Source: Candidatus Omnitrophota bacterium (GTDB taxonomy: Bacteria; Omnitrophota; Gorgyraeia; Gygaellales; Profunditerraquicolaceae). From it: a DNA stretch of 49,211 bases. Where the stretch lies: the NCBI GenBank assembly GCA_016783715.1, contig JADHWA010000003.1:1-49211 (forward strand), given 5' to 3'. A program made the translations under genes and the position numbers. Below, in pieces: positions 18,459 to 18,657 of this stretch (the first letter of the stretch is position 1; every line of letters starts with the position of its first letter). Below the pieces are notes generated by a model, which was given only the letters and a program-made list of their open reading frames with translations, did not search any database and was not told the origin of the DNA.

Positions 18459-18657
18459 TTAAATGAGCAGACGATTTATGGAGCACAACCTGCGACATAA
18501 ATCGTAGCTGCTTCCTTTTTTCTTATCTGTCAGCGTCTGCGAATTTACCCTTGACATCTACTTTAATTAATTTGTTTTAGGTAAATGTCAAGGGTAAGTT
18601 CGTACATATGAGTTATGTCACCTCCTATGTCGGCGACATAACTCATGTACTCACTTA
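18459..18657 (-). repeat. Junction element copy 5 (type B centre, inverted relative to copy 4), between rpsJ and rplC
   Basis: ttaaatga|gcagac..gtctgc|gaattt..ttc|gtac..gtac|tcactta. Confidence 0.94.

Follow-up and report, generated by a model that had tools for sequence, protein, structure and literature searches.

The window, a 49,211-nt stretch of DNA, is contig C39 of a 716,592-bp metagenome-assembled genome (MAG; 45 contigs, scored 65% complete). The nearest matches to the L3 protein of this genome are found in MAGs labelled Candidatus Omnitrophota, at identities of no more than 67%. All long ORFs around the stretch that was flagged in the initial annotation (18596-18657) lie on the minus strand and, by translation, 18658-18954 encodes ribosomal protein S10 (rpsJ) and 17798-18457 encodes L3 (rplC). 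The flagged stretch is located inside the 197-nt S10|L3 spacer, with the rpsJ stop codon TAA at 18655-18657 and the rplC ATG at 18455-18457. The window contains 13 related elements, and the features at this spacer and elsewhere are as follows.

18595..18657, minus strand (the GA strand, here the mRNA sense): the flagged R palindromic unit, covariance-model score 69.8 bits, E 2.9e-14
18548..18594: M hairpin of the S10|L3 composite, CCCTTGACAT...ATGTCAAGGG, abutting both the R and the L unit
18460..18547, plus strand (the GA strand, here antisense to the genes): inverted L palindromic unit, 2 nt before the rplC ATG
18956..19169: tuf/rpsJ composite, with R unit 19106-19169 and L unit 18956-19043
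15543..15737: composite between ribosomal-protein ORFs 15738-16025 and 15203-15541, likely rpsS and rplV from their size and position
22992..23233: composite between ORFs 23231-23602 and 22519-23004, likely rpsL and rpsG from their position
27660..27899: composite between two very long ORFs, 27897-31307 and 23602-27672, likely rpoB and rpoC
33625..33853: composite between ORFs 33851-34378 and 33092-33637
6422..6648: composite with R unit CAAAT-GA..., in which TGA (unit positions 5-7) is the stop codon of an upstream 249-aa ORF
11970..12215: composite between ORF 12189-12758 and a short gene upstream of 11372-11767
35081..35269: composite lying between two minus-strand tRNA genes, tRNA-Thr (35458-35530) and tRNA-Trp (35005-35077)
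43534..43761: composite in which the same frame, CAAGT-GA...GA-ACTTG, surrounds a GC-rich hairpin at the R position
48143..48338: composite that, in its L unit and flank, shares 96% identity over 81 nt with the 15.5-kb copy
48963..49211: composite reaching the window end
5936..6047: reduced element, an L unit and a short hairpin

On the minus strand the flagged R unit reads TAAGT-GA-GTAC-ATGAGTTATG...CATAACTCAT-AT-GTAC-GA-ACTTA, and its first three bases are the rpsJ stop codon. The L unit reads TAAAT-GA-GCAGAC...GTCTGC-GA-ATTTA and holds an inner hairpin with a side extension. Similarly, the tuf stop codon TAA is supplied by R unit 19106-19169 and the rpsJ ATG lies 1 nt past L unit 18956-19043, while in the composite at 27660..27899 the first codon of the R unit, TGA, is the stop of the upstream ORF.

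These elements are built from one palindromic unit (PU). Going inwards, its parts are an outer stem of 5 bp, the tandem G.A/G.A mismatch, a 4-bp stem of hypervariable sequence and an inner stem of 10 bp, with a small bulge on the 3' side between the last two. The order along one strand is X5, GA, Y4, a 10-nt inner arm, an apical loop, the complementary arm, 0-3 unpaired bases, Y4', GA and X5'. X5 is usually TAAGT, TAAAT, TTAAT, TCAAT or CAAAT, the inner arm is ATAAsTTAyG, and the apical loop usually has GA at its opening and GAA at its close. PUs range from 47 to 103 nt in length and their ends follow the pattern TwArT-GA / GA-AyTwA. When we left the mismatch slot free in a scan of the genome, GA/GA was recovered 72 times and its mirror image TC/TC 72 times; five degenerate variants were observed (GA/AA, AA/GA, AA/GC) and no PU had a Watson-Crick slot. 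T-GA-G / C-GA-A is the classic context for sheared tandem G.A pairs in DNA duplexes. The free-slot scan also picked up a third palindrome type, GCAATTGAACA...TGTTCAATTGC, at C4:7223-7269 and C7:7402-7448 of the genome.

In a composite, a PU is followed by a GC-rich middle (M) hairpin and then by an inverted PU, giving three adjacent hairpins. We identified 23 composites of two outward-facing PUs around a middle hairpin, mosaic in makeup and alternating in orientation, and the M hairpins belong to at least 7 sequence types. The distance between PU half-sites runs from ~10 to >40 bp and exceeds 300 nt in M loops. In one composite of a complete relative from another family (G208:C1, ~1727875-1728283) the middle hairpin has a loop of ~330 nt, from which it appears that the M stem can carry sizeable cargo. 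Near-identical PUs with degenerate 5' frames stand in tandem in the same orientation at two loci, L180 (G208:C1:544291-544506) and L177, which suggests local amplification besides dispersal. Apical loops in the pairs we examined hold a single orientation with the exception of one flipped case (C41:556), and with this one case among the pairs examined we rejected flip-flop inversion of the loops as a sign of arm-to-arm recombination.

The paired substitutions on which the initial annotation had built its case are present in the DNA. On the right arm GGAC/GTCC occurs in most copies, GTAC/GTAC at 18604-18607/18647-18650, GACC/GGTC in the 27.8-kb copy, GGTC/GACC at 33.8 kb, TGAC/GTCA at 35.2 kb and GGCA/TGCC at 12.2 kb. 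The inner stem occurs as TGAGTTATG/CATAACTCA and as TAACTTAGC/GCTAAGTTA, and the left arm as GCAGAC/GTCTGC, GCGC/GCGC, GCAC/GTGC and GCCCA/TGGGC.

A model-free scan for X5-GA-Y4...Y4'-GA-X5' with 9/9 pairs perfect returned 78 matches in the genome and 3 in a shuffled genome. By inspection, PUs account for 73 of the 78, and among these Y4 takes 23 and X5 takes 12 different sequences. A frame-restricted version of the scan gave 74 perfect matches in the genome versus 0 in the shuffle, 29 versus 8 with one mismatch, and 50 versus 45 with two mismatches. We also built a covariance model seeded with 15 PUs from the window, with the structure set by hand; alignments from this model are fitted to it and therefore lean towards structure, as the model-free scans do not, and with this leaning the alignment of window units and relatives' loci (A3, 48 sequences) has 96.7% of its cells paired compared with 76.0 +/- 0.8% after shuffling, two-sided changes in 18 of 19 pairs, and 171 doubly changed cells against 42.6. 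Addition of the complete relative G208 (A5, 110 distinct PUs) leaves 96.3% of 2074 cells paired, whereas shuffles average 74.7 +/- 0.5% and none of 500 is as high. In A5 all 19 pairs show two-sided changes, doubly changed cells number 443 versus 112 +/- 9.9, and sliding the partners by 1-3 columns leaves only 26.6-36.4% of cells paired. Purine-pyrimidine flips are frequent, e.g. GC 56 versus CG 46 and AU 53 versus UA 30. Complementarity of the stems is thus clearly maintained through double substitutions, far beyond chance. The initial annotation had read this as selection on structure rather than sequence, or as hairpin-templated correction. "Structure rather than sequence" does not hold: much sequence is also conserved phylum-wide, namely the GA/GA slot, ATAAsTTAyG and the TwArT frame.

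The initial annotation had also placed these helices next to a junction at which they would meet, and here the data disagree. Among the 23 composites, 143 of 230 junction pairings are Watson-Crick, compared with 149.8 +/- 4.1 when partners are shuffled among composites, and 970 of 1000 such shuffles reach or exceed the observed count. The outer five pairs within PUs of the same composites are Watson-Crick in 219 of 230 cases. Each PU closes on itself, and a junction is apparent because a single kind of palindrome stands on either side of the M hairpin in inverted copies. We rejected a four-way junction on the basis of covariation, even though the minus-strand MFE structure of the 18.5-kb copy folds in this way.

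We counted wobble pairs on the two strands over the 19 core pairs of the 110 PUs, as the initial annotation had proposed, and obtained 28 G.T, 32 A.C and 44 other mismatches in 2074 cells, with G.U making up 1.35%. Relative to transcription, wobbles fall 5 on the sense and 8 on the antisense side in the 48 PUs of known sense, and 44 sense versus 48 antisense in whole-unit MFE folds. Folding is strong on either strand (z about -10). The mixed G-T polarity noted initially is real, but it sits in the supposed junction helices, which lack covariation support. Likewise, wobble gives no folding strand, as had been stated, but the strand can be told by other means: the tandem G.A mismatch, the 3'-side bulge and the GA...GAA apical loops mark what we call the GA strand.

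With crude ORF calls, the GA strand is mRNA-sense in 27, antisense in 51 and untyped in 11 of 89 PUs in the window's own genome, and the relatives' loci contain 23 sense and 25 antisense units. A single asymmetric consensus is thus kept by one DNA strand in either orientation relative to transcription, and therefore the two unit types would look different in mRNA. In our view, nothing argues more strongly for a constraint on folded DNA than this conserved asymmetry of the GA strand. Three results together point to constraint at the DNA level: the parity of G.T and A.C, the retention of the consensus in both orientations, and an occupancy that differs between closest relatives (described below).

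We surveyed placement for 89 of the 90 PUs of the genome, one partial match having been dropped. In 25 of them the stop codon of an upstream ORF (at least 60 codons) falls within unit positions 1-7 of the GA strand, as TAA at position 1 (10 units), TAA at position 2 (5), TGA at position 5 (9) or TGA at position 1 (1). In 47 of the 89 an ORF start (at least 60 aa) lies -3 to +17 nt past the unit on the TC strand, and these distances are bimodal, with 17 PUs at -3 to 3 nt lacking an SD and 30 at 7-17 nt having AGGAGG abutting the unit. Seven PUs have both features and 24 have neither. GA-sense units thus follow stops and GA-antisense units precede starts. At the level of full composites, the R-type unit adjoins the upstream stop in 28 of 33; ORF calls are ambiguous in the other 5, 2 of which lie in the window and conform by inspection, their neighbours being on the minus strand. 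PUs are ~3-fold denser in the window, which is rich in translation genes, than in the rest of the genome (13 loci/49 kb versus 61 loci/667 kb). The G208 genome is one contig of 1.97 Mb that opens with dnaA. The orientation of its 61 PUs follows the same gene-linked rule on both halves, also at the few genes whose direction opposes that of presumed replication, given an assumed terminus position. M hairpins are followed by TTAATT or TTTAATT. A scan of 5000-24900 found no terminator-like site at the elements with loops of 3-8 nt allowed, the M loops being longer than this, and a simple scan found no promoter-like sites at the elements; the totals from these terminator and promoter scans do not exceed those of shuffles.

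In the window's own genome (716 kb) the model gives 90 matches and nhmmer 74 loci, which lie between ORFs. Within the same family and order the model finds PUs in 49 of 61 genomes, G000 included (E<=0.01), and in an even sample of the phylum it finds them in 96 of 151 (E<=1e-4, with up to 35 candidates scored per genome). G208, although it belongs to another family, has the same R-M-L composite, ending TCATTAA-AGGAGG-ATG. Occupancy of individual sites varies. Two metagenome contigs that carry the closest S10 proteins (88% and 90% identity) have short, empty tuf|S10 spacers, and at the S10|L3 site one of these two (L087) is empty with a 7-nt spacer and the other (L088) carries a different PU. 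Across 148 loci the S10|L3 spacer spans -4 to 289 nt. On an S10+L3 tree of 30 rows, from which rows with <56% L3 identity or <150 aa of L3 were left out, the 5 occupied sites lie apart rather than clustered and correspond to 5 changes, of which well-supported branches force only 1; the S10|L3 insertion may thus have had one origin or several. Five relatives (L008, L025, L017, L053 and L153) have S10|L3 spacers of 128-289 nt with long insertions unmatched by the PU model, and the site seems to be a general insertion hotspot in some relatives.

Composite copies are mosaics. Between the composites at 22992..23233 and 27660..27899 the M hairpins differ at 1 of 111 columns, and the PUs of the same two copies differ by compensated pairs (GGAC/GTCC versus GACC/GGTC, GCAC/GTGC versus GCGC/GCGC) and also in their loops. 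Searches outside the phylum's genomes were negative within their scope: a degenerate 20-mer retrieved 5 stretches from IMG/VR viral contigs, none of which is a PU by the model; in the window only two tRNAs reached an Rfam gathering score, with generic hairpin matches far below gathering at E<=10; and among titles and abstract openings we found no paper describing such repeats in Omnitrophota.

Two other repeats were observed in the window. On the minus strand downstream of tRNA-Trp (34578-35021), the 3' part of the tRNA plus ~10 bases (CAGGTTCGAGCCCTGCCGCTCCTGTTGGTTACGG) occurs three times at ~200-nt spacing, and each occurrence follows a unit with two small hairpins and lies just upstream of a short secE-like ORF. 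These look like stacked att-type duplications from small elements integrating at the tRNA. A second repeat family, made of runs of AAAGTGCAAAGCGCAAAAC-like heptamer or octamer motifs, is found at 38587-38702 and on contigs C23, C31, C32 and C43, and its motifs form inverted arrays around a CCCGC...GCGGG hairpin.

We also looked for an enzyme that might mobilize the PUs. The Y1 transposase family PF01797 has no match in the window's own genome (65% complete) and matches in 44 of 61 genomes in the search of relatives. Among 60 relatives, 36 have both PU and Y1, 12 have PU only, 8 have Y1 only and 4 have neither. PF01797 is without a match in two genomes rich in PUs, G040 (94% complete, 23 PUs) and G056 (92%, 47 PUs), and no PU lies within ~1.5 kb of the Y1 gene in any of the best 6 of more than 100 Y1 matches (E<=1). 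The Y1 proteins of relatives include classical IS200/IS605 TnpA together with TnpB (L082), and one protein (L085, G028:C18) scores 76.1 bits to NF047646, the NCBIfam model of REP-associated tyrosine transposases, for which the cut-off is 80. Relatives carry 1-12 genes for 160-230-aa proteins nearest to REP-associated tyrosine transposases, and no PU or other obvious hairpin was found flanking these genes in the relatives. With neither co-occurrence nor adjacency, a RAYT or IS200 partner was rejected. A target-site duplication (TAA or TTAA, as in a TIR-type MITE) was likewise rejected, as the unit ends pair and covary as a stem (TAAAT/ATTTA, TCAAT/ATTGA, CAAAT/ATTTG, CGAAT/ATTCG and others) and are not direct repeats.

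Our leading explanation, to which we give an even chance, is that the flagged stretch is one PU of a REP/BIME/REPIN-like modular repeat family that extends across Omnitrophota, works as folded DNA and is probably mobile. Selection would act on the GA strand in single-stranded or cruciform form, as the substrate of a putative trans-acting enzyme that copies or processes the units. If only copies with intact stems propagate, compensated changes could arise without wobble intermediates, be it from this propagation by itself or with added repair that uses the other arm as template. Copies would persist where they are harmless, in the exact gap from a stop codon to the ribosome-binding site that follows, and the unit may itself supply the stop (TAA or TGA); PUs would therefore end up as intercistronic mRNA hairpins. 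The reading as folded DNA is supported by the presence of both orientations, the lack of wobble bias, the purine-pyrimidine flips, the GA/GA slot and the turnover of occupancy, and further by the mosaic copies, the inverted doublets in 23 composites, the gene-following orientation on both replichores of G208 and the lack of an Rfam match. Against mobility, no mobilizing enzyme was found among the Y1/RAYT-type genes of 60 relatives, no unit was seen to insert or excise between strains, and the unit ends, which covary as a stem, do not fit a target-site duplication. In addition, conservation in 96 of 151 genomes of the phylum, R-M-L-SD order in another family, uniform orientation in 28 of 33 composites and the ~3-fold density in the window fit a selected function at least as well as selfish DNA.

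A possible but rather unlikely alternative is that PUs are cis-acting RNA structures of polycistronic mRNAs, with complementarity of the stems selected in RNA. The post-stop hairpin would then protect the upstream cistron, the GC-rich M hairpin would be a point of processing or attenuation, and the downstream cistron would be protected or tuned by the hairpin that immediately precedes its SD or AUG. The two distance groups of starts past 47 of 89 PUs, the stops in unit positions 1-7 of 25, the uniform orientation of composites relative to genes, the recurrence of the R-M-L-SD architecture in a different family, the density of PUs in highly expressed operons and the strong folds are all consistent with such roles. 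However, the mRNA forms would differ, with GA/GA versus UC/UC loops and the bulge on opposite sides, whereas one DNA-strand consensus is kept; G.U is rare and has no sense-strand bias, PUs also occur between tRNA genes, occupancy differs among closest relatives, and the simple scan (loops of 3-8 nt allowed) found no terminator- or promoter-like site at the elements. An RNA role is kept open by the precision of placement, the uniform orientation of composites, the density in the window and the phylum-wide conservation.

We consider it unlikely, though worth stating, that R-M-L composites are mobile "operon punctuation cassettes" which Omnitrophota have retained ever since the phylum arose, and which move as folded DNA and bring their own translational signals. 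These signals would be the TAA or TGA stops at positions 1-7 and a hairpin spaced constantly from the SD or AUG, so that wherever such a cassette came to lie between two genes it would end and insulate the upstream cistron and restart the downstream one.

It is improbable that the arms are complementary only by template switching or repair within the palindrome, with no selection on structure or sequence. The near lack of wobble or mismatch intermediates beside 443 doubly changed cells, the frequency of transversion-type flips and the symmetry of wobble between strands are what such a process would leave behind. If the arms were corrected against each other, however, the tandem G.A, the 3' bulge and the asymmetric loops ought to have vanished as well; all of them are nearly invariant and conserved across the phylum, and the apical loops hold one orientation with one exception seen. 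The hairpin-templated correction raised in the initial annotation may be the proximate way in which arms stay complementary, but it cannot explain why the non-complementary features are never "corrected". Stem complementarity could come from selection on copy-competent hairpins, from templated repair, or from both; templated repair alone is contradicted by the conserved mismatches.

Very improbable is a third alternative, in which PUs are folded single-strand recombination sites of the integron attC kind, acted on by a tyrosine recombinase and with the mismatch and bulge selecting the strand. The shared traits are the position after ORFs, an imperfect palindrome, conserved ends, an unpaired spacer, a bulge and a variable apical part, but the PU ends are TwArT/AyTwA and not GTTRRRY/RYYYAAC, and PUs are found inside conserved ribosomal-protein gene order, in both orientations and also before starts. 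Finally, PUs are high-copy and regularly placed, and REP/BIME elements bind IHF, gyrase and Pol I, yet it is most improbable that PUs are double-stranded binding sites for a nucleoid or topology protein, given that the half-site spacing noted above fits hairpin extrusion and not a dimer bound to duplex DNA.

REP-like elements are usually species- or genus-specific, and their biology is known mainly from Proteobacteria. Here a single PU keeps its sequence and shape across an entire candidate phylum whose members are uncultured and have small genomes. It fits between stop and start signals to the nucleotide, and does so even within the operons of ribosomal proteins, rpoBC and tuf. If PUs are mobile DNA, as in our leading explanation, they point to an undescribed single-strand-DNA enzyme system; if they are functional RNA, they constitute a new and very abundant operon-punctuation motif; and the cassette, if real, would be both a genomic parasite and a standard gene-expression part in these reduced genomes. 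In practice PUs will confuse gene calling, because stop codons sit inside the repeat, and may break Omnitrophota MAG assemblies; the covariance model can be used to mask or census them.

Several known systems resemble the PUs in part. In early mRNAs of phage T7, RNase III-type processing hairpins, long and with internal loops, lie exactly between cistrons. Their position and long hairpin form are those of PUs, which makes them the analogue for a role in RNA; unlike PUs, they are not known as a dispersed, turnover-prone repeat family or to occur in both orientations. IS200/IS605 elements have subterminal hairpins that are recognized as single-stranded DNA, and their ends are direct, not inverted, hairpins. 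These ends and their miniature derivatives share the hairpin form with PUs, and TnpA+TnpB elements exist in the relatives, but no PU was found near the tnpA loci examined and PU orientation follows genes rather than replichores. Integron attC sites are folded single-strand palindromes right after ORFs, conserved mainly at their ends and in shape, in which unpaired and bulged bases mark one strand and the core sites are RYYYAAC / GTTRRRY. PUs, too, are palindromes right after ORFs with unpaired and bulged bases marking one strand; they differ in their TwArT/AyTwA ends, in occurring in both orientations and inside essential operons, and in that no cassette behaviour was seen.

The closest likeness in our leading explanation is to REPIN and REP/BIME repeats. 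A passage of PMC3337134 describes the REPIN as two inverted units around a spacer. PUs share with the REPIN-RAYT system the inverted pair of units around a spacer, long persistence in a lineage and the presence of RAYT-like genes in relatives, and differ in lacking co-occurrence with, or flanking of, Y1/RAYT genes. The alternating arrangement of units in BIMEs is described in part of PMC2817692, and the GTAG or CGTC tag of REP in part of PMC3733652. Like REP/BIME, PUs are high-copy imperfect palindromes in the intergenic DNA of operons, and both form mosaics in which units of alternating orientation are joined to other conserved hairpin or linker modules. In contrast to REP, which measures 20-40 bp, PUs measure 47-103 nt, have no GTAG or CGTC tag, are framed by a tandem G.A mismatch, and overlap stop codons and abut the SD. 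REP is conserved within a species or genus, whereas the PU is conserved across a whole phylum.
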